Source: Candidatus Methanoperedens sp.
GTDB taxonomy: Archaea > Halobacteriota > Methanosarcinia > Methanosarcinales > Methanoperedenaceae
DNA: 32,000 bases
NCBI GenBank assembly: GCA_027460535.1
Contig: JAPZAR010000025.1
Coordinates: 1 to 32,000, forward strand
Direction: 5' to 3'
Position numbers and translations under genes: made by a program
The notes under the pieces: model-generated
Told to the model about the DNA's origin: nothing
Database searches by the model: none
What the model saw: only the letters and a program-made list of their open reading frames with translations
In this document: piece by piece, positions 7,096 through 23,321 of the stretch
How positions within the stretch are numbered: the first letter of the stretch is position 1
Layout: every line of letters begins with the position of its first letter

Positions 7096-8325
7096 ATGCT
7101 GAATCAAATTAAAGAATATTACAAGGACCCCTTCTACCGCAACTCTGTGGCCTTGATACTGAACTCAGCATTCACAGCTATATTTGGTCTCCTGTTTTGG
7201 ATTGCAGCAGCGCGAACGATGCCCGCGAAAGATATCGGACTTGCAATCGCGGCTATTTCGGCGGCTACGCTTATTCTGGGGTTCTCAAGGCTGGGAATGG
7301 ACGAGGGCCTTGTAAGATATCTGCCTGAATCCAAGAATAAACATGGATTATATAGCTCTGTAGTTGGAGTAACACTAGCACTTGCTATTGCTCTTGCTAC
7401 AATATTTCTCGCAACCGTAAAAATTATTTCTCCAGCACTCGGATTTTTGAGGGTGGGGTGGTTTTTACCTATGTTCTTCGCCTACATCACTATTACATCA
7501 ATCTATTCATTGCAAAATGTTGGGATGATAGCTATACGGAGAGCTGATTTAAGTTTTATGCAGAACCTATTTCTCGGATTACGCATACCAATACTGCTTT
7601 TAATCACTTTTCTTGACGTGTTTGGTGTCTTTACTGCTATTGTGACTGCTTTTGGAATCTCTATTCTCTTTGGTTCATACATTTTGGAAAAACATGGACT
7701 TTCAATAACTCGAGATTATGATATAACTGCTCTACGAAAAATGCTGAGATTCTCTTTAGGAAATTATGTGGCAAGCATCTTCATGATGGCGCCTATAACA
7801 GTCATCCCATTAATTATAGTGAATACACTCGGGGCAGAAAAGAATGCATATTTTTATATGGCTTATTCTATTGCAGGGATACTTTCTATGATCCCTTATG
7901 GAATCTCTACATCTCTTTTTGTGGAAGGGTCGCACAGTTTACCTCTGAAGGAAAACGTCATCAAATCAGTGAAGTTAACCATACTGCTACTAGTTCCCGC
8001 GTTGGTTTTCATCTATCTTTTTGGGAATAAACTGCTCCTGTTGTTTAGTAAAGAGTATTCGGAACAGTCATTTGAGATGCTACAATTGCTTGCGGTATCA
8101 AGTATTTTCTCAGCCTTGACGTCAATCTATATTTCTATTAAGAAGATCCAGAAGGATATCAGAATGGTAAATTATGTGAACTTTTCGCTCACGATAATGA
8201 TAATAGGATTTGGATATGTATTTCTTTCAAAGTACGGGTTATTAGGGCTTGGATACGCATGGTTAGGAGCGAATGTAGCAGTGTCTCTGTTTGTAGTTAG
8301 GATGTTTTTGTGGAGGAAAAGATAA
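7096..8325 (+). CDS. Oligosaccharide/polysaccharide flippase, Wzx/RfbX-like (MOP superfamily)
   Basis: 409 aa with ~12-14 predicted TM helices throughout. The N-terminus YYKDPFYRNSVALILNSAFTAIFGLLFWIAAARTM and the overall organisation are typical of polysaccharide biosynthesis (Wzx) proteins. It converges on the glycan operon. Confidence 0.75.
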   Translation: MLNQIKEYYKDPFYRNSVALILNSAFTAIFGLLFWIAAARTMPAKDIGLAIAAISAATLILGFSRLGMDEGLVRYLPESKNKHGLYSSVVGVTLALAIALATIFLATVKIISPALGFLRVGWFLPMFFAYITITSIYSLQNVGMIAIRRADLSFMQNLFLGLRIPILLLITFLDVFGVFTAIVTAFGISILFGSYILEKHGLSITRDYDITALRKMLRFSLGNYVASIFMMAPITVIPLIIVNTLGAEKNAYFYMAYSIAGILSMIPYGISTSLFVEGSHSLPLKENVIKSVKLTILLLVPALVFIYLFGNKLLLLFSKEYSEQSFEMLQLLAVSSIFSALTSIYISIKKIQKDIRMVNYVNFSLTIMIIGFGYVFLSKYGLLGLGYAWLGANVAVSLFVVRMFLWRKR

Positions 8326-8464
8326 GACTAATCTCATTGTATTATTCTGGTGACTGTTAATACTAAATATTATTATATATCAATTACTAAACTAAATTAA
8401 GATGAATGTCAGCTTGTTCGATCAAATAAATCAATTAGCCATCTATACACTTAAAAATTTATTG

Positions 8465-9379
8465 CTAAAGTTTTTTGTTTAAAATAAACGCTAAATCCCG
8501 CATTGTAATGACTTCAATATTTTTTTCATCCTTTTTTTGTGATACAAACTCAAGGACTTGCTCTAGTTTGCCTAGTAAACTAGCATCGATTACAAAGTCT
8601 TCTGGATGCATAAACATGTGAAATATCCTTCCGTATTTTATGGAATTTTGAACTCCTAATTTGGCTCTCAATACCAATGTGTATGGAAATAATGAATCAT
8701 AAAACATCATAGAACTTGGAATTTCCCATATACCGTCTTTCCATATGGGTACTACGCTTGGGGCAACTACTTTAGTGGAAAAAAAATTTATAGCTCTTAA
8801 GGCTATATTTTTATTAATGCTTTTCCCAGCAAGGTTAGGTCCTCTGTATATTTCGAATCCTTTTTGCTTCAATATATCAATATGTCCAATTTTATTTTCT
8901 GGAAACACAAAAGATTTAAAATTAAGTCCAAACTCTTTTCCCAACATTAAACCTTCTTGTATTTCTGCTTCAGCAACTTCGCGGCTGCATTCAGAGAATC
9001 GAACATGCGAAAAAGAATGATACCCAATATCATGTTTAACTCGACTTGATATTATTTTTTCCACAATATCTTTTCCATAATACAGAGGATCTTTTGAGAT
9101 ATTCGAACATGGATCCCAGGAGTACCAATCGTCTTTAAATCGAGGCATATGCTTATGAGGAATTCCATTCTCTTTCTCACAATGATCCAAGAAAACATGC
9201 CCTGTAATTGCCCAAGTCGCAGGAATATTATATTTTTCGAAGATTTTTAACAAATTATTCATAGTGCTTCTTACTTCATAAACTTTATTATGTAGCATAC
9301 CTATTCTTTCATGTTTAGGATATAAACCATATTGGCAAAGCAGCTCGAGGTCCAGACTAAAAATAGCAGCAGGTTTCAT
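8465..9379 (-). CDS. Polysaccharide deacetylase family protein (NodB/CE4-like)
   Basis: 304 aa. Motifs seen: IFSLDLE...YNIPATWAITGHVFLDHC and HDIGYHSFSHVRF (H-S-x-x-H, NodB motif 2-like). There is a 4-nt overlap with the upstream methyltransferase gene. Confidence 0.65.
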   Translation of the reverse strand: MKPAAIFSLDLELLCQYGLYPKHERIGMLHNKVYEVRSTMNNLLKIFEKYNIPATWAITGHVFLDHCEKENGIPHKHMPRFKDDWYSWDPCSNISKDPLYYGKDIVEKIISSRVKHDIGYHSFSHVRFSECSREVAEAEIQEGLMLGKEFGLNFKSFVFPENKIGHIDILKQKGFEIYRGPNLAGKSINKNIALRAINFFSTKVVAPSVVPIWKDGIWEIPSSMMFYDSLFPYTLVLRAKLGVQNSIKYGRIFHMFMHPEDFVIDASLLGKLEQVLEFVSQKKDEKNIEVITMRDLAFILNKKL

Positions 9380-10017
9380 AGTTTATATCTCGCGACAACT
9401 ATTAATACAGGTGAAAATCGAGGGAATATCTTCTCTATTAATTGTAAAAATATATTTAAATATCCTCTTAATTTCGGCGAGTCTAAGAGTAAATAATCCT
9501 CAGTAATGATTTCAAATCCATGAAACTCAAGTAATTGACGTATAGTCCAGAAGTCAAACCAGCATTTATGCTCTGAATTTACAAACTTTCGTCCAAGCAT
9601 ATGCCAAAGAATATATCTTAATCCAAAACAATTTGGGGTCGATATTATTAAAATAGAACCTGGATTCATGTGACTCTTGCAGCTTTCCAAAAACCCTTTC
9701 AAATTTTCCAGATGCTCTATTAACTCTCCTGCAAAAATCACGTCAAACTTAATTTTTAGGTTAAACTCTTCAGCGTTCGCATATCTAATATCGTAACCTC
9801 TTTTAACTAGTTCTTTTATATCTTTTTCTAGTATATCTATTCCAATTACTTCTTTTGAGTGTTTTATGAGATAATCATGGATCCAATCTTCTTTTAGAGA
9901 TTCCCTCCAATCATGTGCAACACAACCAATGTGCAACACTTTTTTCCCTTCGAAATATGGTTTTATATATCGAATCCTATTTAATTCTTTTTCTTTTTCT
10001 TCCATCATAATTTCCAT
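9376..10017 (-). CDS. Class I SAM-dependent methyltransferase
   Basis: 213 aa. GKKVLHIGCVAHDW sits in the motif I position. FDVIFAGELIEHLENLKGFL is the typical Methyltransf_11/23 post-motif. It lies in the operon with the deacetylase. Confidence 0.7.
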   Translation of the reverse strand: MEIMMEEKEKELNRIRYIKPYFEGKKVLHIGCVAHDWRESLKEDWIHDYLIKHSKEVIGIDILEKDIKELVKRGYDIRYANAEEFNLKIKFDVIFAGELIEHLENLKGFLESCKSHMNPGSILIISTPNCFGLRYILWHMLGRKFVNSEHKCWFDFWTIRQLLEFHGFEIITEDYLLLDSPKLRGYLNIFLQLIEKIFPRFSPVLIVVARYKL

Positions 10018-10101
10018 TTATTTCTTTTGTAATAGTTAACCAATCTGTAATATTTGCTTAGGTAATATAAGTTGATTGTCCAAGGTATTGGTTCCTTTCT
10101 G

Positions 10102-11991
10102 TCACCATGAGTTAATCTTCTTCATAGTTGAATTCACATAATATACCCAGAACTCTCCATTTGAGTACAACATGCTAGCACTTATGTCATAATTTTCAAA
10201 TTTGTTAAAATCGCTTTCATTAAATCCCCATTGTATAACAGGATCCATTCTAGCATTGGCTAATATAGGATTAGCATTAGCTAGCTTGCTGATTTGGGTA
10301 ACAATTACATATCTATTTTGAGCAAATGATTCTCCAAGTGCATTATAATGCGTGTAATTGAAGTGTTCTGGAATAATACGCTCTGGATCATTACCATATC
10401 TGTAGTATGCCGGATTAGAAGATTGAACATAACCCATACCATTGCTAATAATATCCGAGCTACCATGTTCTGAAAACCAATCTGAACCATACATATAACT
10501 ATACGTAACCTGCCAGTTTTGTTGCATTACCCAGGGAGAACGGTACACATTGAATACACTAATTGTTAAAGATAATATTACGATTACTACTATAGCTATA
10601 ATGCTTATTATTTTCTTTCTTGAGTTTTTGAATAACTCAGATAGGGCAAACCCCGTTAATATAGGGGCAATTACCATCATGTAATTTAATCCAAGTAACC
10701 TGCCCACACTCATTGATTTTGATGAACTAAAAATGAAATAACTTAATGGAATACTACTTACAAAAAGTGCAGACAATGCAAGCATGTTCGTTATTCCACT
10801 CTCATGCCTCAATGCTTTTTTTAGAATCAATATTATCGCAATCGATGAAATCACTATATATATTACATTAGCTCCATACATTTTAAGAAAGAGCTCAGCT
10901 AAATCAACCCCTTCTATATTCTGAAGAGCTTTAGCTCCTTCTGCAATAAAGTAACTCTCTTCTGCACTTCCGCGTATCGAAGAAAAAATCGATCGAATCG
11001 TTTCGTTGAAAAACACAAAAGTGGATAACCATATAAAAAATATTATAGATGAGATTAAAATTGGAAATAATGAGATATCTTCCAATTTTTTAGCATACAA
11101 CCCTTTTGTTAATTCGAATATTGCAAAAAAAAAGATTAGCATTAACGACGATACTGGATGAAAAAACGGATATAAAATAAAAAAAACAATGAAAATCAAT
11201 CTAAAACGTGATGATAGTTTTCCTGAACTTTTGAAATACAAATAGAACACTAAGGGAAACATTAAAACAGAAATGCCACTTGGATATACGGATATTTGAT
11301 AATATGAAAAGAAAAACACGGCGCTTGATGCAGAACTCAATAATATTTTCTGTTTTCCGTGTAAAGTTGCAGTAGCAAGGAGATATACAAAAACCATAAA
11401 TAAAATTGAAAAGAAGGCAGGCGTGTATCTAAATACCGCCTCAGTTTGTATACCGGAAATTTCTGCAACTTCCGATATTAATATATGTGTAATTGGATAA
11501 ATATTGTTTTCTTCGAAATGACCTTTTAAAAAAATAGCCATTGCTAGTTTGAGATGTTCCAGGGAGTCTCCCAGATTATATGAGAAATAACCTCTTATCG
11601 CATGCAAAGAAAGAATAATAAAATTACTTAATAATAATATTGAAAAACCAATCAACCAGAAGCTACTTTTATTTTCGGTGAAAGCTTGATGGACGATGAT
11701 AGCGGCTCCACATATGCTACTTCCGATTAAAAATATCCATACAAGCGGACTTATGCTCGAATAAATGGATAATTCGTAACCCATCGCAGGTGAATTTCTT
11801 ATGAGAATAAGAGATAATGTGATAAAAATAAAAGCGATAATTGATACGATTTTAATAATTATATTTTCATCACTGAATTTTGAAAATTTACTTTTAACCT
11901 TTCCCGACCAATACCGTTTGGAAATAACGGTCAACTCTGACCAAGCATATACATCTTTTGGAGAAACGATTATAATTTTACTCATCATCAC
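10102..11991 (-). CDS. Large polytopic membrane protein with a C-terminal extracytoplasmic domain; candidate GT-C-type glycosyltransferase or glycan polymerase, function unknown
   Basis: 629 aa. By eye there are roughly 13-15 hydrophobic helices between aa ~45 and ~480. These are followed by a ~140-aa Tyr/Asn/Trp-rich soluble tail (WQVTYSYMYGSDWFSEHG...NGEFWVYYVNSTMKK). It sits inside the GT operon. No WWDYG oligosaccharyltransferase motif was found. Confidence 0.55.
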   Translation of the reverse strand: MMMSKIIIVSPKDVYAWSELTVISKRYWSGKVKSKFSKFSDENIIIKIVSIIAFIFITLSLILIRNSPAMGYELSIYSSISPLVWIFLIGSSICGAAIIVHQAFTENKSSFWLIGFSILLLSNFIILSLHAIRGYFSYNLGDSLEHLKLAMAIFLKGHFEENNIYPITHILISEVAEISGIQTEAVFRYTPAFFSILFMVFVYLLATATLHGKQKILLSSASSAVFFFSYYQISVYPSGISVLMFPLVFYLYFKSSGKLSSRFRLIFIVFFILYPFFHPVSSLMLIFFFAIFELTKGLYAKKLEDISLFPILISSIIFFIWLSTFVFFNETIRSIFSSIRGSAEESYFIAEGAKALQNIEGVDLAELFLKMYGANVIYIVISSIAIILILKKALRHESGITNMLALSALFVSSIPLSYFIFSSSKSMSVGRLLGLNYMMVIAPILTGFALSELFKNSRKKIISIIAIVVIVILSLTISVFNVYRSPWVMQQNWQVTYSYMYGSDWFSEHGSSDIISNGMGYVQSSNPAYYRYGNDPERIIPEHFNYTHYNALGESFAQNRYVIVTQISKLANANPILANARMDPVIQWGFNESDFNKFENYDISASMLYSNGEFWVYYVNSTMKKINSW

Positions 11992-11995
11992 CGGA

Positions 11996-12172
11996 TCAAT
12001 ATATCAATCCCATCCAAATCTTCTTTTCTGGAAATAGAGCACAAATCAGCATGTAGCCCGAGAAGAATAGAATAAAAGGTAAAATTTGAACCTTGCTGGA
12101 GAACTTGGGACGGGATTTATTATGGCAATAAAGCAAGACTGAAAACATGTTTATCAAGACTATATTTCTCAT
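11996..12172 (-). CDS. Possible small two-TM membrane protein (58 aa), speculative
   Basis: The track ORF 11996..12202 fills the 185-nt gap between the GT4 stop (12177) and the 629-aa gene start (11991). From the internal Met at 12172 it reads MRNIVLINMFSVLLYCH...ILPFILFFSGYMLICALF, with two hydrophobic segments. No homology was recognised, and it could be a chance AT-rich ORF. Confidence 0.2.
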   Translation of the reverse strand: MRNIVLINMFSVLLYCHNKSRPKFSSKVQILPFILFFSGYMLICALFPEKKIWMGLIY

Positions 12173-12176
12173 AGTT

Positions 12177-13331
12177 TTAAAGTTCGGAACTTGTATCTTC
12201 ATTGCAATTCTCTAATATTTTTCTATACCTTTCAATCGCGGCTGCATAAGTATAATTCTCCTCTATTGATTTCTTTGCGTTCTCTACGATCACATCCAAA
12301 TTAGGATGCATTAAAACCCTCATAACATTCTTCTCAATGCAATCAGTCGAGTTTTTCTCCATAATAAATCCAGTTTCTCCATCCTTTATCAAACATGGTA
12401 TCGCTCCTACAGGAGTTGCCAAAACTGGTGTTCCACATGCCATTGCCTCCAAGATTATAGTAGGAAATGCATCTGTATATGTTGGAAGAACAAGCAATTT
12501 TAACTCATTTAAATAATCTGGGAGTTCTTGTCCAATCCAACCTGTGATGGTTATGTTAATCGCCTCCTTATTCATCAATTCGTTGCACTCTTCCTTTACC
12601 CACTCTAACATATCTCCAGAACCTCCTATTAAGAATATAACTTCCTTATTTTCTTTTGCAATAATCGGAATAGCCTTAACAAATTCTACAATTCCTTTTT
12701 CTTTTATGAGGCGCCCAATGAACCCCACTAAATTTTTTCTCTCATTTAACTTCTTTTTTATATTATAGCGAGTGATATCTATAAATCTGGCTCCGTCAGG
12801 AAGAAGCTTATTCTTATATTTCTCTAAACCTAATTCTCTTATCAATGACATAGACTCTGGAGAAATTCCATCTAATAACATGAAAAATATCGGGTCTTGC
12901 AAACTAAGAATTTTAGAGGGTACTGAGTTGGACTTGCTTCTGGTTATAACTTCAATTGTCTTTTTTCCAATGATTTTTGACGTAATTAATGGTAATAAGT
13001 AATAAGGATAAGCTACATAAAACAAAACAATATCAACCTCTTTTCTTACTTTTATTACCTCGATACTTGCTTTGAATTGAGCCAAGATACATTTCACAAT
13101 CCATATAATTGCCGAATATGAAACCGGTCTAATCTCCTTAAGATAATGCATCTTAATGCGAGTATCTTTCACATCCACTATTTTGGATGTTACACTAATT
13201 CTATCTGTGTTCCCATTTATTAGCACAATCTTACTAGAAATTGGTTCGAGAATTTTCAATATATCTGATAAAAACTTGTATGGAGCATTTGATTTCCATG
13301 GGTATGATATTACTGCAACTTTTGGTTTCAT
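12177..13331 (-). CDS. GT4-family (GT-B fold) glycosyltransferase
   Basis: 384 aa. The C-terminal signature FPTIILEAMACGTPVLATPVGAIPCLIKDGETGF is the E-x7-E motif region of GT4 enzymes. There is a 4-nt overlap with the upstream gene. Confidence 0.85.
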   Translation of the reverse strand: MKPKVAVISYPWKSNAPYKFLSDILKILEPISSKIVLINGNTDRISVTSKIVDVKDTRIKMHYLKEIRPVSYSAIIWIVKCILAQFKASIEVIKVRKEVDIVLFYVAYPYYLLPLITSKIIGKKTIEVITRSKSNSVPSKILSLQDPIFFMLLDGISPESMSLIRELGLEKYKNKLLPDGARFIDITRYNIKKKLNERKNLVGFIGRLIKEKGIVEFVKAIPIIAKENKEVIFLIGGSGDMLEWVKEECNELMNKEAINITITGWIGQELPDYLNELKLLVLPTYTDAFPTIILEAMACGTPVLATPVGAIPCLIKDGETGFIMEKNSTDCIEKNVMRVLMHPNLDVIVENAKKSIEENYTYAAAIERYRKILENCNEDTSSEL

Positions 13332-14848
13332 GTTACTTTTATGTCATTCTCAAAAATACTTTTTCCATCAAAATCAAACATCTCCCAATTTATACCACTA
13401 ATGTCCAATATCGTTGGAGCAACGTCCATCAAGCTCATATTACTTTTAATCATTTTTCTTTTACAATTTGAAATCAAAAAGACAGAATCTTCTTTATGTC
13501 CTCCGGAAGAAAGATTATGTTCATAAGAAGTACCAATAATAGGGGTATGTACGCTCCAATAAACACCATAATTTTCGTTGAGTTTGAAAACAATATCCGG
13601 ATAAAGATTAATATTTTTACCAGCATATATTTCCTCTCGTCTTTTAACCCATTCAAAAACCATCTCCCCTGTATCAATATCTTGAATCTTAAAAAGTTCG
13701 TTTATCAACTTATCCGTGAATTCTTCATGGGCTATACCTAAATTGTTATTGATGTGAATACCTCCTTCAGAATATGATTTCGCTCCTGTAAAATAGGATA
13801 AGTATGCCATAGATTTCTCAATATCAATCATAGATGAGGAAGTGTAAATTTTTTTACTTGCTCCTGAAAGTAACTTCATCTTTCCGATTTTGACCAGCCA
13901 GTATGTTAAATCTCTTTTGTGTGCAAAGTCCAAAACTCTGATTTTTACTTTTTCTGTAATACCTAATCTTGTATTAGATTTTAAGTAACCTTTCTTTCTC
14001 AGAAACTCATTTATATTAACAGTTTTAGGAGGTCTCATTTTGTGCCCATGGTCGCTCATCACAATTTTTATATGATCTGGATGAGCATCCAAAAATCTGC
14101 CAACTACTTCATCAAACAGCATATAAAATTCTTTTATCACATTTTTATAAGGATTGTTTAAGGGATGGGTAGGATCACTTTCATCATAATACCTCCAGAA
14201 GAAGTGTTGAATTATATCCAATTCAGAGAAGTAAATAAAGAATAGATCCCAATCGTAATTTTTTGAAATGTCCAATCCAAAATTAGCTTGGTCAAGCACC
14301 TTTTTCTTTGCTTTTTCTGCAAATTTGCCTAATTTTTTAAAGCCGGGATGATTGCCTGAAAGGGTTCCCAGATGTGAGATGTCGTATTTTTTACAAATAG
14401 AGTTGGGATAAGTTAAAACTCCACCATTTTCAATATTAATTCCTTTCTTTTTAAGATCTTCTGCTGGATACAATGACCGGCTTATCATTACCCCGCGTAC
14501 TTCCCATGGGGGAAAAGCAGATTGAGGAAACAGAATACAGACCTTTTTACCTTGTTTACTGGCTATATCCCAAAATGTTCTGCCTTTGAATGCATCGATA
14601 TTCAGGTTCGATATACTTTGCCAATCGGATTCAAATAAATCAAAAGTATGAATAATTCCATGCTCAGCAGGACTCAAGCCAGTGTAAATAGATATCCAGG
14701 CAGGTATAGTATCAGGAGGAAAAACCGACTTTATTTTAATGGTTGGACTTTCTTCAATCAATTTCTTAAAATTTGGTAAAGAGTCTATGAATCCATTAAG
14801 TAAACATGGATCCAAAGAGTCTATACCGATTATCAGCACTTTTTTCAT
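13328..14848 (-). CDS. Alkaline-phosphatase-superfamily enzyme, type I phosphodiesterase/nucleotide pyrophosphatase (NPP)-like, cytoplasmic
   Basis: 506 aa with no TM helix or signal peptide. MKKVLIIGIDSLDP supplies the metal-ligand Asp. FPPDTIPAWISIYTG supplies a Thr nucleophile in NPP-type context. VMSDHGH provides the distal metal ligands. Confidence 0.7.
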   Translation of the reverse strand: MKKVLIIGIDSLDPCLLNGFIDSLPNFKKLIEESPTIKIKSVFPPDTIPAWISIYTGLSPAEHGIIHTFDLFESDWQSISNLNIDAFKGRTFWDIASKQGKKVCILFPQSAFPPWEVRGVMISRSLYPAEDLKKKGINIENGGVLTYPNSICKKYDISHLGTLSGNHPGFKKLGKFAEKAKKKVLDQANFGLDISKNYDWDLFFIYFSELDIIQHFFWRYYDESDPTHPLNNPYKNVIKEFYMLFDEVVGRFLDAHPDHIKIVMSDHGHKMRPPKTVNINEFLRKKGYLKSNTRLGITEKVKIRVLDFAHKRDLTYWLVKIGKMKLLSGASKKIYTSSSMIDIEKSMAYLSYFTGAKSYSEGGIHINNNLGIAHEEFTDKLINELFKIQDIDTGEMVFEWVKRREEIYAGKNINLYPDIVFKLNENYGVYWSVHTPIIGTSYEHNLSSGGHKEDSVFLISNCKRKMIKSNMSLMDVAPTILDISGINWEMFDFDGKSIFENDIKVT

Positions 14849-15492
14849 TTCACTACCCCCATTACAATTTCAAATATTGTGTCGGTAAGTTCTTTCTTAG
14901 ATTTAATACCATCGAGTACTATCGTTTTGTTTTGGTAATTTTTAAGCAATTCCAAATACATCGTTTTCCTTTGAGACAAGTAGTTAACTGACGGAATATC
15001 ATCTTTTCTGGCATATGCCAATTCGATAGGAAGGTCTATAAAGAAAATAATGCTAGGCTTAGGAAATAAACTAAAAAATTCTGTTGTATTATTCATCTCT
15101 CCTCTGCTGGATTTAGCATTCATTGAGAATCCGATGATGATATCGTAGATGTACCGATCAACTATCACAACATCATATCTATATAACGAGACCAAAAGAT
15201 TTGGAAACACTCTGACAAAATAATCTAGCCATGCTACATAGAATAGAAAATTATTTGATGATGGTTGACGGATTATAATTTTTTTATTCTTTGCTAAATT
15301 TTTTGTCATCATTACAATAGATTTAAACAGAGGTGTTTCAAACTTTCGCCAACCACACCAGAAGTATTTACACGATTTTCTAGAATCCTTTAAAGACGCT
15401 TCCAATGATTTAGCAAGAGTTGTTTTTCCTGAACCATCGATTCCAGTAAAGCAGATAAGAAGTCCTTTATTTTTCATAAGTTTAAATTCCAC
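14845..15492 (-). CDS. Thymidylate-kinase-like P-loop kinase
   Basis: 215 aa. The P-loop reads LICFTGIDGSGKTTLAKSL and a DRY motif reads VVIVDRYIYD, as in the Tmk family. The central region is divergent and hydrophobic. The start may be the second Met at 15477. Confidence 0.65.
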   Translation of the reverse strand: MEFKLMKNKGLLICFTGIDGSGKTTLAKSLEASLKDSRKSCKYFWCGWRKFETPLFKSIVMMTKNLAKNKKIIIRQPSSNNFLFYVAWLDYFVRVFPNLLVSLYRYDVVIVDRYIYDIIIGFSMNAKSSRGEMNNTTEFFSLFPKPSIIFFIDLPIELAYARKDDIPSVNYLSQRKTMYLELLKNYQNKTIVLDGIKSKKELTDTIFEIVMGVVK

Positions 15493-16552
15493 AACGATCC
15501 CTACAAACTTTATCAGGAATGCGGTTTATCATGTTTTGCCTAAATTCTTGATAATCCTTATTGTTCCATATATCTGTAAATGGTATCTCAAGAACATTGC
15601 CAAAAGATTTAGTAAGGTTCATACAGCATGGATGAACAAAACCATCCCATGAGATAAAACATGTAGTCCAAGGAAATTTGCATAAGGTTACTTTGTTATT
15701 ATCTTCAAAAAGACCTACATGAGTAATCTTAATATTTTGAGATTTACTTATAATTAATAATTTTTTTAACATATCTTCGATATTTCTTTTAGAAGGCATG
15801 TCGTATTTGCCCCGGCGAAGCTTGTCGTCATAAATACCAACCCCGTGTATGTGTACATGTTTAACTCCAATTTCTTTTGCAAGAATTATAATATCAATTA
15901 GATCATCTAAGTTTTCTTTCATCAAGGTTGTAACGAATCTTAAAGGCATATTTTTTTTATAGAAAGTTGTAGATTTGGTCAATGACTGGATATTTTCTTT
16001 TATTTTTTCGAAATCTTTATAATTTCTAATCTTTGTTGGATTTACTGCATCTATAGAAATACCCATTCTTAAAAATTTGGAATTAATTATTTTTTCTATA
16101 TTATCATCCGTTATAAATGTACCATTTGAAATAAAACCTGTTCCGATTCTCTTGACATTGCAGTAATCAATGATCTTGAACAAATCCTTGCATATTAAAG
16201 GCTCACCCCATCCACCCCAACTTATCCACAATAAATATGGAAATTGGTCCACTATTTTTTTAGCATTTTCGTAATCCATTTCTCCAAATTTCCTGTTTTG
16301 TAGTAGACGATAGCACATTGGGCAATTTAAATTACATTTATTCGTTTCTTCTATTTGGATGACATAAGGCCTGGACATTAGATTCGTCCTTTTTAATCTA
16401 AATTCTAATTTCTGAAGAATTAAATTGCTCCAGATTTTTGGATTTGTGATCTTTTCATAACCATTATAAATGTACCACTTCAATTCTCCCAAAGTCGAAA
16501 ATTTTTCTAAACCTCCACCAAGTAGCTTCTTATAAATAATTTCTTTCATCAT
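15482..16552 (-). CDS. Radical SAM enzyme with a SPASM/twitch-like Cys-rich C-terminal domain
   Basis: 356 aa. ETNKCNLNCPMCY is the CxxxCxxC radical SAM cluster motif. The C-terminal CKFPWTTCFISWDGFVHPCC ... VCRDRC resembles an auxiliary Fe-S (SPASM) domain. Confidence 0.8.
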   Translation of the reverse strand: MMKEIIYKKLLGGGLEKFSTLGELKWYIYNGYEKITNPKIWSNLILQKLEFRLKRTNLMSRPYVIQIEETNKCNLNCPMCYRLLQNRKFGEMDYENAKKIVDQFPYLLWISWGGWGEPLICKDLFKIIDYCNVKRIGTGFISNGTFITDDNIEKIINSKFLRMGISIDAVNPTKIRNYKDFEKIKENIQSLTKSTTFYKKNMPLRFVTTLMKENLDDLIDIIILAKEIGVKHVHIHGVGIYDDKLRRGKYDMPSKRNIEDMLKKLLIISKSQNIKITHVGLFEDNNKVTLCKFPWTTCFISWDGFVHPCCMNLTKSFGNVLEIPFTDIWNNKDYQEFRQNMINRIPDKVCRDRCGI

Positions 16553-17586
16553 TCATCACTCTTATCTGTTGAATTGCGAAGATCGTAATATATCTTATCT
16601 AATTTTTTGGATATGTTCTCCCATGAGTAATGAAGAACAAGCTCCCGAGTTTTGACTGAAATTTCCCCGTCATTTAACTCTTTCACTTCTTGTGCAAATT
16701 TTTTAGTATCAGCATATGTAAACCCCTCCCCTTCGTTAAAAATTCTCGGCAATCCACCAAATCTTGTGGAAACGATAGGCAGATTGGTCGCCATCGCCTC
16801 CAATATTGACAGTGGTATATCTATACTTCCTATTGGATCAGTTGTCGGGAATATATAACAATCCGAAAGAGCATATATTTCCTCTATTTTTGGAATATAT
16901 TCATTAATTATCTCAACGCCTATTCTTTTTAGCTCTAATGCTACATCTACCTCGAATTTTGTTGAAGTTCTACCAACTAAAACAACTTGAACATCTTGAT
17001 TGTTCTGAATTTCCTTTAAGATGCTAACATTTCTCCATTTTCTTACAGACCCTACATGCAATACGACAAATTTTTCTGAAGATATTTTGTATTTTTCTCT
17101 AAGTTCTTCTTTACTTTTTCTTGATGCCGGATGGAATTTTTTGATATCTACACCGCTGGATACAAAGAATTTAACATTACATCCAAGCTTTGTAAAAATT
17201 TTTTCTGGCTCGTCTGATTGAACTAATACCAAATCCGTCTTAAAAAATGGTATAAAATTCTTGCTAATAGATGAAAAACCATAGTAAAAGCCATGAGAGA
17301 AACTGTGGAACGCATGTAGCGATGAAAACATTACCGTTTTTGCATTCTTAGAATGAATTTTCATCAGTTTCGTAATTAAAAAACTCAAAGGGGAAGCTCC
17401 AGGAATATAATGTATTATTTCAGGGTCAAATGAATTTATTTCATTCCAAAAATTGGTTGATAGAGTCGCTTGAATATTTAGTGGCTTTACCTCATTATTT
17501 TTTGATAGCTCTCTCAATAAATGGTGTCCCATAACTTTCCTTGCTTCATCCGGCGATGAGAAGTCACCTACTAAGCATATTCTCAT
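16549..17586 (-). CDS. GT4-family glycosyltransferase
   Basis: 345 aa. IPLSILEAMATNLPIVSTRFGGLPRIFNEGEGF is the GT4 E-x7-E region. The 3' end overlaps the radical SAM gene by 4 nt. Confidence 0.8.
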   Translation of the reverse strand: MRICLVGDFSSPDEARKVMGHHLLRELSKNNEVKPLNIQATLSTNFWNEINSFDPEIIHYIPGASPLSFLITKLMKIHSKNAKTVMFSSLHAFHSFSHGFYYGFSSISKNFIPFFKTDLVLVQSDEPEKIFTKLGCNVKFFVSSGVDIKKFHPASRKSKEELREKYKISSEKFVVLHVGSVRKWRNVSILKEIQNNQDVQVVLVGRTSTKFEVDVALELKRIGVEIINEYIPKIEEIYALSDCYIFPTTDPIGSIDIPLSILEAMATNLPIVSTRFGGLPRIFNEGEGFTYADTKKFAQEVKELNDGEISVKTRELVLHYSWENISKKLDKIYYDLRNSTDKSDE

Positions 17587-18790
17587 TTATAGCCTCCGTA
17601 TAAGCACCTTCGATGGCGTTTACTATATTTTTTATGTCATAATTTTCTACATACTCTAAAGCATTTCTTTCAATTTTTGCTTTTTCATCAGGATTCTTTA
17701 AGTAATACAAAATACGCTCAAGAAGCTCTGATTTATCATTTACTAATACCCCATTTTCTTTATTTTTAATTATTTTTCTAACGGCAGGAATGGAGTAAGC
17801 TATGCATAGAGTACCTGAAGCCATCGCCTCTAAAAGCACTATCCCAAACCCCTCCATCTTTGAGGGGAGAACAAATATATCTGCCCTTTTGTAGAGGCCT
17901 ATCAACCCATCGTCAGACACGTTTCCAGCAAAAATAGCTTTATCTTTTAGATTCTGATTTCCTACAATTTTTTCCAACTCTTTTTTGTATCCATAATCTT
18001 TTCCAACGATAACAAACTTGCCTTTTGGAAACTCTTTCAAAATTTCCGGCATTATTTCTATTATATCTTGTATTCCTTTATATTTCTCTATTCTTCCTAC
18101 AAAAAGCAAAATTTTGTTCTGATCATTAATTCCAAACTTATCTATTGCATTTTTATTTATGTTTATATTTTTATAACCATCCAATTCTATTCCATTTGGA
18201 ACAATTTTAATTTTATTTATATCTCCCCCCCTTTCATTATACTGCTGTATATGGTCTTCTGTTAACGCAATCAGCCGTTTAGAATTTTTTAGTAGATATC
18301 GCCCAAAGGTTTTGTCGTATACTTTTTTAAATAACTTAGCGTCAGATGATAAATTAGTAGGGATTATTAAGTCATGTGCTGTCAATATGAATGGTTTTTT
18401 AAACTTATTTGCATAATAGCATCCTGCCAGAGATGTAGATATATGGTATCCATGAGCATGGATTACATCAAATTCTTGTGTATTTTTTTTTAATTCTTTA
18501 AACATCTCAGGAATCCAATTAAAGCTCCAAAACCTAAATTGCATGTTAAATCTTCTTATAAAAGCCCCGTTGATAATGTCATTTTTGGGGAGATGCGTTT
18601 TAATCTTTGATTTGAAAATAAACGGCGGAGTAAACACTAAGGATACAACATCCTCTTTTGAAAGACTAGTAGTCGTATAAATTACCACATCATGCCCTTT
18701 ATCATATAAGTATTTAGATAATAGGTATGTATGTTTTTCAGCGCCTCCGAGTGATGGATAAAATCTGTTTTGTATGAGAAGTATCTTCAT
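17564..18790 (-). CDS. GT4-family glycosyltransferase
   Basis: 408 aa. The N-terminus MKILLIQNRFYPSLGGAEKHTYLLSKYL is typical of GT4 N-terminal domains. The catalytic region reads EGFGIVLLEAMASGTLCIAYSIPAVRKIIKNKENGVLV. Confidence 0.85.
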   Translation of the reverse strand: MKILLIQNRFYPSLGGAEKHTYLLSKYLYDKGHDVVIYTTTSLSKEDVVSLVFTPPFIFKSKIKTHLPKNDIINGAFIRRFNMQFRFWSFNWIPEMFKELKKNTQEFDVIHAHGYHISTSLAGCYYANKFKKPFILTAHDLIIPTNLSSDAKLFKKVYDKTFGRYLLKNSKRLIALTEDHIQQYNERGGDINKIKIVPNGIELDGYKNININKNAIDKFGINDQNKILLFVGRIEKYKGIQDIIEIMPEILKEFPKGKFVIVGKDYGYKKELEKIVGNQNLKDKAIFAGNVSDDGLIGLYKRADIFVLPSKMEGFGIVLLEAMASGTLCIAYSIPAVRKIIKNKENGVLVNDKSELLERILYYLKNPDEKAKIERNALEYVENYDIKNIVNAIEGAYTEAINENMLSR

Positions 18791-18806
18791 ATTTCTTCCT
18801 CATCCA

Positions 18807-19946
18807 TCATATTTGCAGTAAAAGCATTTCCATCCTTCCTGCAATCCTCTCCCAATCATAATTTTCTTCTACAAAACTTCTGCCTTCCAATCCCATCTTC
18901 CTTCTCAGTTTGTCATCTTCAAATAGCATAGTTATCTTATCTTTATACTCCTCCTTATTTGATGCATATAATATTTTATCACGTGCCACTTTTTCGATGC
19001 TGCTCAACCTCGTAGAAATAATTGGTTTTTCGCATGCCATATATTCAAATAATTTCAAAGGAACGGCACTCTCCGATATTGCGCTCTTCCTGAAAGGAAT
19101 CAAGCATATATCCATCGCTGAAATGTATTTCGGCACCTGAGAATAAGGAACCATACCAATAAATTTGACCCTATCCTTCAGATCATATCTCTTAGCCAAT
19201 TCTATATTTTCTTTAAATCTTCCTTCCTTTCCCACGATGACCAAATTTATTTCATTTTCTAATTCATTCAATACTGAAAAAACAGGTTCAAAATCGATCC
19301 ATTCTCTCAAAACCCCAACATAGCCAAGGATGAAGCCATTAAGACCCAGCTCTTCTTTCATCTTTTGACCATAATTTCTAAACAGATTCGTATCCACGCC
19401 ATTTGAGATAATTTCAGATTTATTTTCGGGGATACTATAGGTTTTTCCAAGATTATCCGTGGTAAGAGTTATCTTGCTAGAGATGCTGATATTCTTTTTA
19501 AGCATAATATCTCCAAATATTCCTCCAACCGATCTCAACAGAGAGGGAATTTGAGGCGACTCTTTGATCATGGCGCTAAGATCATCCGCGATATCATATA
19601 CTGTATCAAGTTTCTTAGCAGCATAATAACCCGACACCAGAGTGCTATAATTCAAATGGACCTCGAAGTCCTTCTCCTTCATAAGATTGGTGACTTTATT
19701 TCTTGAAAAAACTTCCTGGATTATAGGACTTATTTTCTTATCAGTCAAATGACGATAATCAACTCTATTGAATATCTCACTAAAGTATTCTGAATATGAT
19801 TCTAAGTCATCCTGCCCGCCCTTCCACCAATCATTTAAACTCAAGACTGTAACATTATGCTTTTTCGATAGATATTTGACAAAATGGTGGGGTCTATTAT
19901 GTTGGGATTTTTTCAAATCCACTATAGATGTTATTAAGATGTTCAT
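18807..19946 (-). CDS. GT4-family glycosyltransferase
   Basis: 379 aa. LGYVGVLREWIDF...AVPLKLFEYMACEKPIISTRLSSIEKV has GT-B/GT4-like architecture. It is the last gene of the AT-rich block, 21 nt downstream of wecB. Confidence 0.75.
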   Translation of the reverse strand: MNILITSIVDLKKSQHNRPHHFVKYLSKKHNVTVLSLNDWWKGGQDDLESYSEYFSEIFNRVDYRHLTDKKISPIIQEVFSRNKVTNLMKEKDFEVHLNYSTLVSGYYAAKKLDTVYDIADDLSAMIKESPQIPSLLRSVGGIFGDIMLKKNISISSKITLTTDNLGKTYSIPENKSEIISNGVDTNLFRNYGQKMKEELGLNGFILGYVGVLREWIDFEPVFSVLNELENEINLVIVGKEGRFKENIELAKRYDLKDRVKFIGMVPYSQVPKYISAMDICLIPFRKSAISESAVPLKLFEYMACEKPIISTRLSSIEKVARDKILYASNKEEYKDKITMLFEDDKLRRKMGLEGRSFVEENYDWERIAGRMEMLLLQI

Positions 19947-19967
19947 TAGAAACTCGCTAGGTACATT

Positions 19968-21053
19968 TTATCCACTTCTCCACTTTGCTTCCATCACCCT
20001 CCCAATCCTCTCGGCCGCCCTCCCATCACCGAATGGATTCCTCCATCCGTTCCCCTTTGCAAGCATGCTTCTGGCACACTCCACTACCCTCTCAGGCTCA
20101 ACCCCTGCAAGCAAATTCGATCCAACCTCAACAGTTTCAGGCCTTTCCGTGCTATCCCTGAGGGTAACGCATGGCACGCCAAGGATGCATGTCTCCTCTT
20201 GAACGCCTCCTGAGTCCGTCAGGACAAGACGCGCGCTGCTCTCAAGCTTCAAAAAGTCAAGGAAATCCACGGGATCGATCAATCTGATATATCCATTTGT
20301 CCTGATTCTAAACTCATCCATTTTTTTTCTTGAGCGGGGATGGATGGGATAGATAACAGGAATATCAAATTCATGGCTAAGTTTCTCGATGCCCTTCAAC
20401 ATCGCGGTTAGCCTTGCAGGGTCGTCCACGTTCTCCTGCCTGTGCGCCGTTACGAGGAAAAATTCTTTTGGTGCAATGTTCAATTCTTCCAGGGTGCTCT
20501 TCTCATTTGCGAGCCTTAAATTCTGGTTGACTGCATCAACGATCGTGTTCCCGGTAACGAATATCTTCTCTTCAGGGATGCCTTCATGCAGCAATATTTC
20601 CCTGGATTTTTCTGTGGGTGCGAAGAGGTAATCTGACGCGTGGTCTGCCAGGGCTCTGTTTAATTCCTCAGGCATACGTCTGTCATAGCTCCGCAAACCT
20701 GCCTCTACGTGAGCTACCTTGATGTGCAGCTTGGACGCTGCAAGCGCCCCCGCAAGCACGGTATTGGTGTCACCCTGCACCAGCACAGCATCAGGCTTCT
20801 CTTTCATGAGCACTCTCTCGATCCCTGCCATCATCTTGCCCGTCTGTTCGCCATGCGCTCCAGAACCGACCTCAAGGTTATACTTCGCCTCCGGGAGCTC
20901 AAGCTGCTCGAAGAAAACCCTGTCCATGCTGTAGGAATAATGCTGGCCTGTATGAAGGATAAAATGATCAAGGCCCCTTCGCTCGCATTCCCTTATAACC
21001 GGAGACATTTTTATGATTTCAGGTCTTGTTCCAAGGATTATTGCAAGGCTCAC
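19968..21053 (-). CDS. wecB: UDP-N-acetylglucosamine 2-epimerase (non-hydrolysing)
   Basis: 361 aa with a GTG start. Hallmark motifs: ILGTRPEIIKMSP, HVEAGLRSYD, DSGGVQEETCILGVPCVTLRDSTERPETV. GTGA start/stop overlap with the upstream GT2 gene. Confidence 0.9.
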   Translation of the reverse strand: MSLAIILGTRPEIIKMSPVIRECERRGLDHFILHTGQHYSYSMDRVFFEQLELPEAKYNLEVGSGAHGEQTGKMMAGIERVLMKEKPDAVLVQGDTNTVLAGALAASKLHIKVAHVEAGLRSYDRRMPEELNRALADHASDYLFAPTEKSREILLHEGIPEEKIFVTGNTIVDAVNQNLRLANEKSTLEELNIAPKEFFLVTAHRQENVDDPARLTAMLKGIEKLSHEFDIPVIYPIHPRSRKKMDEFRIRTNGYIRLIDPVDFLDFLKLESSARLVLTDSGGVQEETCILGVPCVTLRDSTERPETVEVGSNLLAGVEPERVVECARSMLAKGNGWRNPFGDGRAAERIGRVMEAKWRSG

Positions 21054-21943: not shown

Positions 21944-21947
21944 TCAA

Positions 21948-21996
21948 TCTATATAAATCTTTTCTTAATTATTAAATAATCTAAATTATAATCATT
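21948..21996. promoter_or_regulatory. Short divergent AT-rich promoter region with TATA-like boxes
   Basis: A 49-nt spacer lies between the GT2 gene (minus) and the small ORF (plus). It contains TATATAAA (21950-21957) and TAAATTATAAT (21982-21992). Assignment as archaeal TATA/BRE elements is by position only. Confidence 0.3.
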
Positions 21997-22176: not shown

Positions 22177-22237
22177 AAAATCCAGTTCATAACTATCTAT
22201 AGCATGGTTCTTGAATTTCTGTAATTTAAGAATGATT

Positions 22238-22294: not shown

Positions 22295-22415
22295 CTCATG
22301 GATATCACGGTTATTTTCGAATTTCAATATAAACTCAGCTAACGTATAACCGTAAGCCGCCAGCGCTATGCCTGATTATGTTCTGCATTATTATTTCCTA
22401 ATTATTTATACCTGT

Positions 22416-23291: not shown

Positions 23292-23321
23292 AGTGGTGCA
23301 GGAGTCAAAAAATCTTTCGAA

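Follow-up and report, generated by a model that had tools for sequence, protein, structure and literature searches.

A radical SAM/SPASM enzyme (rSAM), a P-loop kinase and an alkaline-phosphatase-superfamily (AlkP) enzyme are encoded side by side between GT4 genes on a Candidatus Methanoperedens contig. This locus raises the question of whether the three genes form a unit, as proposed in a preliminary description that read them as an undescribed tailoring module, and which step of glycan assembly they would serve.

Organization of the locus

The window (the whole stretch of 32,000 nucleotides that was analysed) contains a string of genes on the minus strand, headed by a GT2 gene (21050–21805; Pfam match) and a UDP-GlcNAc 2-epimerase-like gene (19968–21053). 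The label WecB for the latter is a sequence reading only; a homologue in locus L058 has Pfam Epimerase_2. GT4a (18807–19946) and GT4b (17564–18790), both with Pfam and NCBIfam matches, lie upstream in the same operon as the short GT4c (16549–17586, 345 amino acids; Pfam Glycos_transf_1 and Glyco_trans_1_4). There follow the genes for the rSAM (15482–16552, 356 amino acids), the kinase (14845–15492, 215 amino acids from a GTG start), the AlkP enzyme (13328–14848, 506 amino acids) and GT4d (12177–13331, 384 amino acids; Pfam matches), which overlaps the AlkP stop by 4 nt. Further along the minus strand lies a polytopic membrane protein (10102–11991, 629 amino acids) with about 11–12 hydrophobic segments by hydropathy and a soluble domain at its C-terminus; it matches nothing in Pfam, NCBIfam or the PDB, has no family assignment, and might act as a polymerase or in a GT-C-like role. 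Pfam matches identify a SAM methyltransferase (9376–10017, minus strand), a polysaccharide-deacetylase-like gene (8465–9379, minus strand) and a Wzx-like flippase (7096–8325, plus strand). All these genes belong to a Wzx-type cluster for a surface glycan (possibly an N-glycan) of a Methanoperedens-like archaeon.

In the order GT4c/rSAM/kinase/AlkP/GT4d, the genes overlap by 4, 11, 4 and 4 nt, confirming that the three enzyme genes overlap each other and the adjacent GT4 genes by 4–11 nt. The 11-nt value depends on the kinase GTG start at 15492. An ATG at 15477, which leaves a 4-nt gap downstream of the rSAM stop codon, is preferred by the database gene call (P0001, 210 amino acids) and by the N-termini of homologues, and the kinase is more likely to comprise 210 than 215 amino acids. 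The genes are tightly packed whichever start holds. Close packing alone is an ordinary operon trait; what rises above chance is that part of the arrangement is kept in dozens of distant genomes.

A conserved core of GT4, kinase and AlkP genes

Scanning 185,579 species genomes with the AlkP enzyme as the only seed yielded 47 loci, spread over many phyla of both domains. The kinase gene adjoins the AlkP gene in 46 of them, and the contig of the 47th begins inside the AlkP gene. An orthologue of the short GT4 lies directly upstream of the kinase at every locus where upstream sequence exists; in about 36 of 50 loci GT4 and kinase are direct neighbours, their genes often overlapping by 4 nt, and six of seven contexts seeded on the kinase show the order short GT4, kinase, Phosphodiest. 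The archaeal loci of the AlkP-seeded scan include Methanosarcinales, Methanobacteriaceae, Methanomicrobia, Methanomassiliicoccaceae, Micrarchaeota and Promethearchaeum, the bacterial ones Chloroflexota, Proteobacteria, Myxococcales, Bacillota, Scalindua, Solirubrobacterales and Armatimonadetes. Moreover, the short GT4 and the kinase are fused into a single protein in L049, L050, P0293, P0298, P0317, P0329 and P0388; a kinase–GT4 fusion (P0326) and kinase–NTP_transf_5 fusions (P0266 and P0301) were also found. The conserved unit is thus very likely the short GT4, the kinase and the AlkP enzyme, in this order, and not the rSAM, kinase and AlkP enzyme. No paper on this GT4/kinase/AlkP gene trio was found in the literature.

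The core resides in glycan clusters, surrounded by GT4s, GT2s, Wzx, methyltransferases and GT-C-like membrane proteins. Counterparts of genes in the window recur around it: GT4a/GT4b orthologues precede GT4c in many loci, GT4d orthologues follow the AlkP gene in L001, L011, L018, L023 and L032, homologues of the polytopic protein follow it in about 13 loci, and homologues of the epimerase-like and GT2 genes occur near the module in L013, L016, L018, L022 and L032. The best solved relatives of GT4c are BshA, PimB' and GlgM, all of them weak.

The radical SAM/SPASM gene as a lineage-specific accessory

The rSAM carries the CxxxCxxC motif (residues 73–80; C73, C77 and C80) and a cysteine-rich, SPASM-like tail (C291, C298, C309, C310, C350 and C354), and is matched by Pfam Radical_SAM (60.3 bits) and SPASM (54.9 bits over residues 291–354); among solved structures the BtrN core fits best (41 bits). 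Only four close homologues (49–66% identity) exist among 5.8 billion proteins. In the contexts checked for two 66%-identical homologues, the rSAM gene directly precedes the kinase gene (L055, L056 and L057), and the exact order GT4–rSAM–kinase–AlkP recurs in L055/L056, so the trio does co-occur outside the window. An rSAM gene between GT4 and kinase is confined to the window's close relatives; in other lineages this slot holds SAM methyltransferases or a PMT_2 GT-C protein, or is empty. In 12 of the 47 loci, however, members of three distant rSAM/SPASM clades (sharing about 20–28% identity) are encoded no more than 10 kb from the module, which makes the rSAM a recurrent accessory. The rSAM gene of the window is a lineage-specific tailoring gene inserted into the core. 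Of the tailoring module as initially delimited, the kinase and AlkP enzyme stand as members of a conserved glycan module, whereas the rSAM falls outside the core, as the 46 of 47 loci and the GT4–kinase fusions indicate.

Properties of the kinase and the AlkP enzyme

The thymidylate-kinase signatures of the kinase (GIDGSGKTT, residues 17–25; DRY, 112–114) are accompanied by a Pfam Thymidylate_kin match (PF02223, 40.1 bits). Its AlphaFold model (pLDDT 88) has thymidylate kinases (Tmk) as best folds (TM 0.7–0.76), and the P-loop, DRY and LID motifs are all retained, with the P-loop, Y43, D112, R113, D117, R162, K163 and D165 invariant across the family. The family profile matches solved Tmk structures only at positions 6–34 and about 104–219. 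Where Tmk has its dTMP-binding segment, the kinase has a hydrophobic helical hairpin, and the segment cannot be aligned. True Tmk identity was rejected on account of this replaced NMP-binding segment and of a score below the cut-off of the dTMP kinase equivalog TIGR00041 (55.4 vs 83.25). All NCBIfam equivalog scores of the three proteins are far below cut-offs, and none of them falls cleanly into a housekeeping family.

The AlkP enzyme is the best conserved of the three proteins (median identity 41%). Its reading as a cytoplasmic enzyme with an NPP-type threonine held up: Pfam Phosphodiest matches with 119.7 bits, in an alignment, Thr47 of 'PPDTIPAW..TGLSPAEHG' falls on the NPP nucleophile, and no TM-like or signal-like segment was detected. 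D10, T/S47, D211, H215, D266, H267 and H451 are invariant in the family; the full set of six NPP metal ligands is retained, as is the Ser/Thr nucleophile. The model (pLDDT 89) has ENPP1/3, PhnA and Xac NPP as top Foldseek matches (E about 1e-15). Judged by its residues, predicted fold and solubility, the AlkP enzyme looks competent. Its fold is nearer to diesterases and pyrophosphatases (ENPP, PhnA) than to classic monoesterases, and it lacks the Asn that NPP has after the HG motif.

A proposed phosphate-handling step and its alternatives

We favour, with modest confidence, the explanation that the GT4, kinase and AlkP core of glycan clusters performs a phosphate-handle step to which the rSAM adds tailoring. 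The kinase would transfer phosphate from ATP to a non-nucleotide acceptor. This would be a sugar hydroxyl on the growing, probably lipid-linked glycan, or else an acceptor that serves this glycan; the partner GT4 would use the phosphorylated intermediate or supply the sugar that becomes phosphorylated. The AlkP enzyme, with its Ser/Thr nucleophile and two-metal site, would then remove or convert the phosphate (by monoester hydrolysis or phosphodiester chemistry), and later GT4s and the membrane protein would complete and export the glycan. The rSAM would probably catalyse radical oxidation, epimerisation or deoxygenation of the same sugar. GT4s that use phosphorylated acceptors and are followed by a phosphatase are found in SPS/SPP and MshA/MshA2, and transient phosphorylation in the xylose phosphate added by FAM20B and removed by PXYLP1. 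A specific cycle of phosphorylation, glycosylation and dephosphorylation is tentative, and its substrates, step order and phosphate fate are conjectural. Against the favoured explanation, the AlkP enzyme, with diesterases and pyrophosphatases as its nearest folds and no NPP Asn, may catalyse more than one type of reaction. Since Tmk-like kinases normally phosphorylate phosphomonoesters, a diphosphate-forming reaction fits equally well, and gene order and fusions are compatible with the kinase acting before or after the GT4. Also against it are the kinase context L005, which has no AlkP gene within 10 kb, and L060, where a shorter Phosphodiest protein stands beside a PfkB kinase instead.

The same diesterase-like fold and usual Tmk-fold substrate would suit a permanent phospho-substituent, which we regard as rather unlikely. 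Here the kinase would make a phosphomonoester or diphosphate-activated donor, and the AlkP enzyme, with a covalent phospho-Ser/Thr as intermediate, would work as a transferase. The glycan would end up with a group linked by a phosphodiester or pyrophosphate, or with a glycosyl-phosphate bridge, which the rSAM or methyltransferases would tailor. This is in essence the initial idea with the unit corrected. The AlkP superfamily does include transferases with a Thr intermediate (LtaS, EptA/CptA and PIG-N/O), but to our knowledge all characterised ones are extracytoplasmic and membrane-anchored, unlike the soluble enzyme of the window. Methyltransferases in the kinase-adjacent slot (L001, L014 and L015) resemble, together with the kinase, the WbdD kinase-methyltransferase phosphomethyl cap. 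We know of no phosphate-containing glycan from these organisms, and the neighbour census contains no conserved gene for making a donor (a cytidylyltransferase, for instance). The kinase–NTP_transf_5 fusions recall pseudomycoidin, in which phosphorylation precedes glycosylation (PMC6993621). A lipid-A-like logic is improbable: by analogy with LpxH, LpxB and LpxK, the NPP-like enzyme would split an NDP-sugar and release a sugar-1-phosphate, which the GT4 would take as acceptor, and the P-loop kinase would phosphorylate the product. The enzyme classes match (nucleotide-sugar pyrophosphatase, GT-B transferase and P-loop kinase), the hydrophobic hairpin at the Tmk dTMP site would fit, and no phosphoglycosyl transferase is among the conserved neighbours; yet the reasoning is by analogy alone, no Lpx family is among the listed Pfam/NCBIfam matches, no relation to the three Lpx enzymes was seen, and the missing transferase may sit elsewhere in the genome, as initiating transferases often do.

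Quite improbable is an anSME-like rSAM that matures the adjacent AlkP enzyme by converting its active-site Ser to formylglycine. Maturases of the anSME type, whose targets are AlkP-superfamily proteins, count among the founding members of SPASM. In each of the 13 other loci that combine a nearby rSAM with a readable residue, the AlkP nucleophile is Ser (L053 is unreadable), and L058 has a 29%-identical rSAM two genes from a sulfatase-family protein. However, Thr47 of the window cannot give formylglycine, the family has (S/T)IPAW in place of the recognition motif (C/S)xPxR, the L058 'sulfatase' likewise has a Thr-type site, the rSAM is missing from most Ser-type loci, and phylogeny confounds the correlation. 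We give least credence to unrelated roles. The Thymidylate_kin match and Tmk fold would suit a dTMP/NMP kinase recycling GT4-released nucleotides, with the AlkP enzyme as a nucleotide pyrophosphatase, but the TIGR00041 score and lost dTMP-binding segment speak against it, and GT4 adjacency and fusion tie the kinase to glycan clusters. A prokaryotic viperin with its associated defence kinase is suggested by PADLOC pVip matches of the rSAM (55.5 and 47.8 bits) and a VakA P-loop match of the kinase; the latter is limited to residues 13–36, the rSAM scores 44.8 with NCBIfam viperin, whose cut-off is 180, and it carries a SPASM domain, which viperins, as far as we know, lack.

Overall, the interpretation in the preliminary description is partly supported, and the phosphodiester substituent or radical sugar modification that it proposed from the sequence is possible. 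The kinase and the AlkP enzyme belong to a conserved, uncharacterised module of glycan gene clusters, and this module seems to handle phosphate in a step of surface-glycan assembly that has not been described.

Gene layout and the conserved core

Five minus-strand genes form one string in the window: a short GT4 glycosyltransferase (16549-17586), a radical SAM/SPASM protein (rSAM; 15482-16552, 356 aa), a Tmk-like P-loop kinase (14845-15492, 215 aa counted from a GTG start), an alkaline-phosphatase-superfamily protein (AlkP; 13328-14848, 506 aa) and a following GT4 (12177-13331). Successive genes overlap by 4, 11, 4 and 4 nt, in agreement with the tight packing (4-11 nt) noted in the preliminary description of this DNA, with the 11-nt rSAM/kinase overlap being valid only for the kinase GTG start. 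The database call (P0001, 210 aa), the N-termini of homologues and the sequence itself favour an ATG at 15477, 4 nt past the rSAM stop codon. A hydropathy scan of rSAM, kinase and AlkP detected no TM-like segment in any of the three.

To delimit the conserved unit, we collected homologues of kinase and AlkP and inspected their gene neighbourhoods. A word-indexed search returned about 130 kinase homologues and an exhaustive profile search 549 clusters at 50% identity (E <= 1e-30); for AlkP, at least 484 homologues were found at E <= 1e-10. Six of seven kinase-seeded contexts ran from a short GT4 of about 330-345 aa through the kinase to a Phosphodiest protein of about 500-510 aa, often followed by another GT4 or a large polytopic membrane protein, and in none of the seven did an rSAM gene directly precede the kinase. 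AlkP homologues with 40-71% identity come from Chloroflexota and many archaea. When AlkP alone served as the seed, an alignment-based scan in which each GTDB species was represented by a single genome yielded 47 loci, which were annotated locally by HMM and phmmer. They belong to archaea (Methanosarcinales, Methanobacteriaceae, Methanomicrobia, Methanomassiliicoccaceae, Micrarchaeota and Promethearchaeum) and bacteria (Chloroflexota/Dehalococcoidia, Proteobacteria, Myxococcales, Pelobacter, Bacillota, Scalindua, Solirubrobacterales and Armatimonadetes). The carriers include a cultured organism, Methanobacterium sp. MZD130B (L023). The kinase adjoins AlkP in 46 of the 47 loci, the remaining one lying on a contig that begins inside AlkP, and a short GT4 is present wherever a locus has upstream sequence.

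In about 36 of 50 loci no gene separates the short GT4 from the kinase, and the two frequently overlap by 4 nt; they are joined into single polypeptides in Capillimicrobium (L049), in a Chloroflexi locus (L050) and in five further representative clusters. Other kinase fusions comprise one kinase-GT4 and two kinase-NTP_transf_5 proteins; an apparent GT4-kinase fusion in L048 was discarded as an out-of-frame ORF artefact in high-GC DNA. The median identity to the window protein is 41% for AlkP, the most conserved of the three, 37% for the short GT4 and 31% for the kinase. We therefore define the core module as short GT4, kinase and AlkP. The preliminary description, which had grouped rSAM, kinase and AlkP, thus noticed the right genes but misplaced the boundary: kinase and AlkP do recur together, with the upstream short GT4 as third core member, whereas rSAM directly precedes the kinase only in close relatives of the window.

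A variant module was observed in L060 (8001-13095), where the gene after a short GT4 encodes a 590-aa fusion of the kinase with an NTP_transf_5 domain; some genes further downstream, a PfkB-family sugar kinase lies directly upstream of a shorter Phosphodiest protein (395 aa).

Divergent enzymes of the core

The short GT4 matches PF00534 (55.9 bits) and PF13692 (59.2 bits) above the Pfam cut-offs and reaches no NCBIfam equivalog cut-off. Three of the GT4s match the Agl16 model weakly (30-98 bits, cut-off 575). Agl16 was the sole named archaeal Agl enzyme among the matches listed, and kinase, AlkP and rSAM matched no Agl model there, consistent with the earlier view that none of these three is a standard Agl component.

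The kinase carries both signatures ascribed to it beforehand, GIDGSGKTT and DRY. It matches PF02223 (Thymidylate_kin) with 40.1 bits (cut-off 27) and stays below the cut-off of the dTMP kinase equivalog TIGR00041 (55.4 bits, cut-off 83.25). With Tmk it shares the P-loop (GxDGxGKTT across the family), the DRY motif (D112, R113), the LID arginine (R162) and the overall fold; its AlphaFold model (pLDDT 88) has a Tmk fold (TM 0.7-0.76), and the top 50 Foldseek matches are all Tmk. In contrast, the family profile can be aligned with solved Tmk structures only at positions 6-34 (P-loop) and 104-219 (DRY strand onward), whereas positions of about 35-103, which hold the dTMP pocket in Tmk, are unalignable; in a pairwise alignment, YFWCGWRKF of the kinase stands opposite LYREPGGTK of Tmk. 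Where Tmk has its dTMP site, with the REPGGT loop and the Phe and Arg that hold thymine, the kinase has a hydrophobic helical hairpin. According to model and hydropathy, residues 54-69 and 79-105 form this family-specific long helix pair, which is partly hydrophobic and not TM-like. Further differences are the family-specific invariants Y43, D90/Y91, K163 and D165 and the fusions to GT4 or NTP_transf_5 in some lineages. We reject a housekeeping Tmk because of the low equivalog score, the lack of a dTMP site and the linkage in the genome, and the kinase is probably a phosphotransferase with a non-nucleotide acceptor.

AlkP belongs to PF01663 (Phosphodiest; 119.7 bits, cut-off 23) and, as described earlier, combines the absence of a TM-like segment with a Thr nucleophile (Thr47) in an NPP-type context. 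D10, T/S47, D211, H215, D266, H267 and H451 are invariant in the family alignment; we take them to be the six metal ligands and the nucleophile, by analogy with the Xanthomonas NPP. W51 is a further invariant residue. The AlphaFold model (pLDDT 89) retrieves ENPP1/3, PhnA, Xac NPP and ENPP6/7 in Foldseek (E about 1e-15). The likeness to NPPs (ENPP1/3, Xanthomonas NPP) and PhnA extends to the core fold, PF01663 membership, the six metal ligands and, for NPPs, the Ser/Thr nucleophile within T-x-P-x-x...TGL-x-P-x-x-HG. However, only about half of the protein superposes on NPP/PhnA folds (TMq about 0.5); outside this half lie the invariant basic residues R219, R272, K332 and R404, and the extra region with the last three has no match in NPPs or PhnA. 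The Asn that follows HG in NPPs, where it stabilises the transition state, is not conserved across the family, and AlkP scores 19.3 bits against the PhnA equivalog TIGR02335 (cut-off 407.55). Moreover, AlkP is cytoplasmic, not secreted, and is genomically locked to GT4 and kinase. From alignment and model we conclude that AlkP is predicted to be catalytically competent and could be a monoesterase, diesterase, pyrophosphatase or transferase.

A variable slot occupied by rSAM

The motifs expected in rSAM are present, namely C73xxxC77xxC80, a SPASM domain (PF13186, 54.9 bits) and six C-terminal cysteines of atypical spacing, in addition to PF04055 (Radical_SAM, 60.3 bits). All equivalog scores are 3- to 10-fold under the cut-off, with 132 bits for the tungsten-cofactor maturase (cut-off 380), 103 bits (102.9) for NirJ2 (cut-off 500), 91 bits for AhbD (cut-off 500) and 44.8 bits for the NCBIfam viperin model (cut-off 180). 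A heme-pathway enzyme had been considered for rSAM; the AhbD, NirJ, NirJ1, NirJ2 and AhbC models score 69.8-102.9 bits against cut-offs of 500-650, that is 5- to 7-fold too low, and the gene lies in a glycan operon in a window with no heme genes detected. For all three proteins of the original trio, the HMM searches placed each inside its superfamily and none at a functional equivalog, so that a clean assignment to housekeeping families does not apply. In its CxxxCxxC motif and SPASM domain, rSAM resembles SPASM/twitch enzymes (BtrN, anSME, PqqE), the best solved match being the BtrN core; in its identity of only 20-30% and its oddly spaced six-cysteine tail it differs from those with a named function.

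Among 5.8 billion sequences, rSAM has four homologues at 49-66% identity, the next best reaching 29%. The two relatives at 66% lie directly upstream of a kinase; L055 and L056 have the order GT4-rSAM-kinase-AlkP and L057 the order PMT_2-rSAM-kinase. In other loci, the slot between short GT4 and kinase is usually empty or otherwise holds a SAM methyltransferase (L001, L014, L015), a PMT_2 GT-C protein (L010) or another GT4 (L029-L031). Since rSAM is confined to close relatives and the slot is empty or differently filled elsewhere, the slot is a variable one for tailoring genes, into which rSAM has been inserted.

Radical SAM/SPASM homologues nevertheless recur near the module; a search with an rSAM/SPASM profile located them within 10 kb in 12 of 47 genome loci and also in L006. 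They form three clades with a mutual identity of only about 20-28%: the window clade; a clade between an upstream GT4 and the short GT4 (Chloroflexota, Methanosarcinales); and a clade downstream of AlkP (Proteobacteria, Myxococcales, Scalindua, Promethearchaeum). By our estimate, which is not a computed statistic, this frequency is roughly ten-fold over chance for a 20-kb window, and rSAM is best described as a facultative accessory that recurs, not as a chance neighbour. Because of the weak BtrN resemblance and the tailoring-slot position, we speculate that rSAM might oxidise, epimerise or deoxygenate a sugar by radical chemistry.

Two further observations concern radical SAM proteins. In L058 (3900-9459), a Wzm/Wzt ABC transporter is followed by an rSAM/SPASM protein (29% identical), a PAPS_reductase-like protein (245 aa) and a sulfatase-family protein with a Thr-type active site (TVPSH, not CxPxR); here too, in a setting of glycan export, an rSAM is paired with an enzyme that uses ATP and with a member of the AlkP superfamily. 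In about eight loci (L005, L031, L060 and five others), a type distinct from SPASM lies no more than 9 kb from the module, namely B12-binding radical SAM proteins of about 460-490 aa that are class-B methyltransferase-like.

Host, glycan cluster and neighbouring genes

The window LonB clusters at >=90% identity with LonB of Ca. Methanoperedens which, judged by this protein sequence, places the host in or near that taxon. The GC content of the glycan operon (8000-20000) is 31-36%, below the 39-52% of most of the DNA beyond 20 kb (20000-32000), which encodes WecB, a GT2, an archaeosortase-like gene, TldD/PmbA and LonB; this difference suggests that the operon was acquired laterally or is of distinct origin. 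A sigma-70 promoter/terminator scan of this archaeal DNA gave counts equal to shuffled sequence.

The cluster contains several GT4s, a GT2, a WecB-like epimerase, a Wzx-like flippase, a methyltransferase, deacetylase-like proteins and a 629-aa polytopic membrane protein. Recurrent neighbours across loci are GT2s, Wzx, B12-rSAM enzymes, DUF1616/DUF2206/DUF6541 membrane proteins and pyruvyl transferases; in this census, a phosphoglycosyl transferase was not recurrent. The 629-aa protein (10102-11991, minus strand) has no match in Pfam (E <= 1), NCBIfam or a PDB sequence search and could represent an unrecognised polymerase or GT-C-like family. Polytopic homologues of 590-630 aa repeatedly follow AlkP (L004, L006, L008-L010, L014, L025, L028, L032, L052), and in other loci this position is taken by DUF2206, DUF6541 or DUF1616 proteins.

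At the left end of the window, the apparently ORF-poor region 1-5300 gave empty Rfam and tandem-repeat scans and turned out to be a giant ORF absent from the ORF listing (3-4775, minus strand), of which the N-terminal >=1591 aa are visible before it runs off the end. The protein begins with a hydrophobic signal or anchor, and Pfam identifies two Laminin_G_3 domains, a beta-helix and an Ig-like domain in it; the ORF also contains a 248-nt internal repeat (3217-3464 versus 4390-4637, 70% identity). The 82 N-x-S/T sequons are twice the number expected (40.5 ± 5.4 in shuffles). The product is predicted to be a secreted, likely heavily N-glycosylated surface protein beside the cluster and, because of the sequon excess, a plausible glycosylation substrate.

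An exosortase/archaeosortase-like gene (22416-23291), an Rce1-like CPBP protease gene (25237-26055) and a gene for a YdjM-plus-CBM_4_9 membrane protein (5385-6575) flank the cluster. Near the module, L006 and L007 also carry Rce1-like genes and L006 a YdjM gene, which may point to a larger conserved locus for surface proteins and glycans.

Discussion

All proteins studied fall into known superfamilies as divergent members, and their cluster can be recognised as a locus for surface glycans; in the searchable literature, including entries under COG3379 and arCOG01377, we came across no account of the GT4-kinase-AlkP triad. Short GT4, kinase and AlkP are three soluble enzymes that are co-inherited, translationally coupled and sometimes fused, and they combine a retaining-type GT-B transferase, an ATP-dependent P-loop kinase with a non-Tmk acceptor pocket and a two-metal Ser/Thr phosphoesterase. 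We infer that the three work in succession on a single intermediate of a cytoplasmic, probably lipid-linked glycan. The pairing of a glycosyltransferase with a kinase and/or an AlkP-type or other phosphatase on the same intermediate is shared by SPS/SPP, MshA/MshA2, FAM20B/PXYLP1 (glycosaminoglycan linker), WaaG/WaaP/CptA (LPS core) and WbdD (phosphomethyl cap). The kinases and phosphatases of those pathways are of HAD, histidine acid phosphatase or protein-kinase-like type with no detected sequence relation to the Tmk-fold kinase and NPP-like phosphoesterase of the module, so the likeness may be taken as functional analogy only. The GT4-kinase fusions fit a hand-over of substrate.

We tentatively prefer a reading in which phosphate serves as a transient handle, and hold it to be possible rather than probable: the kinase would place phosphate on the acceptor or on the sugar just added, the GT4 would work on the phosphorylated species, and AlkP would take the phosphate off. 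Such a cycle has precedents in SPS/SPP, MshA/MshA2 and FAM20B/PXYLP1. It is favoured because ATP and an NDP-sugar suffice for it, so that conserved donor-synthesis genes are not called for, and because it accounts for the strict kinase-phosphoesterase pairing and the GT-kinase fusions. The main rival, which we regard as doubtful, is that the phosphate is retained in the glycan and AlkP is a transferase making a phosphodiester or pyrophosphate substituent, for which WaaP/CptA, WbdD and LtaS/EptA-type chemistry are precedents. The kinase-NTP_transf_5 fusions are compatible with both the transient and the retained phosphate, as is the order of events in pseudomycoidin, phosphorylation and then glycosylation (PMC6993621).

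The remaining explanations are minor. Maturation of AlkP by an anSME-like rSAM was considered because Ser-type AlkP correlates with rSAM presence; in the anSME system, the partner carries a (C/S)xPxR motif whose Cys/Ser becomes formylglycine. This is contradicted by Thr47 and the missing CxPxR motif, as the window AlkP reads T47-I-P-A-W and the family (S/T)IPAW, with neither the Arg nor (C/S)xPxR, and the L058 sulfatase beside the 29%-identical rSAM is also of Thr type. A viperin-kinase defence pair is suggested by PADLOC, whose matches are generic, with pVip covering the rSAM core only and VakA the P-loop only; the viperin score (44.8 bits against 180) is far too low, and a SPASM domain stands in place of the viperin C-terminal domain. 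Lipid-A-like LpxH/LpxB/LpxK logic and nucleotide recycling are likewise minor. 

In a more novel reading, the triad may be an unrecognised archaeal and bacterial enzyme system whose chemistry is undescribed for cytoplasmic glycan assembly, with rSAM/SPASM partners performing a new radical reaction on a phosphorylated sugar, a combination that strikes us as unlikely. Candidate chemistries would be a glycosyl-phosphate or pyrophosphate linkage via a covalent phospho-Ser/Thr enzyme intermediate, or glycan priming without a canonical phosphoglycosyl transferase.

We rate the triad as a widespread, uncharacterised phosphate-handling module of glycan assembly. Where annotation pipelines give names, these are 'thymidylate kinase/dTMP kinase' and 'alkaline phosphatase family protein / predicted AlkP phosphohydrolase', which renders the functional interpretation of many metagenome-assembled genomes wrong or empty. 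To our knowledge, hardly any surface glycan has been characterised from methanogens, ANME archaea, Asgard archaea or Chloroflexota. The GT4-kinase fusions and the solubility of all three core proteins suggest that the module can be tested in vitro; the kinase acceptor, once defined, would be a new specificity for the Tmk fold, and the NPP fold might gain a cytoplasmic transferase or phosphatase role. That so many lineages carry the core implies that a phosphate-dependent step outside the current Agl and Wzx/Wzy schemes is common.
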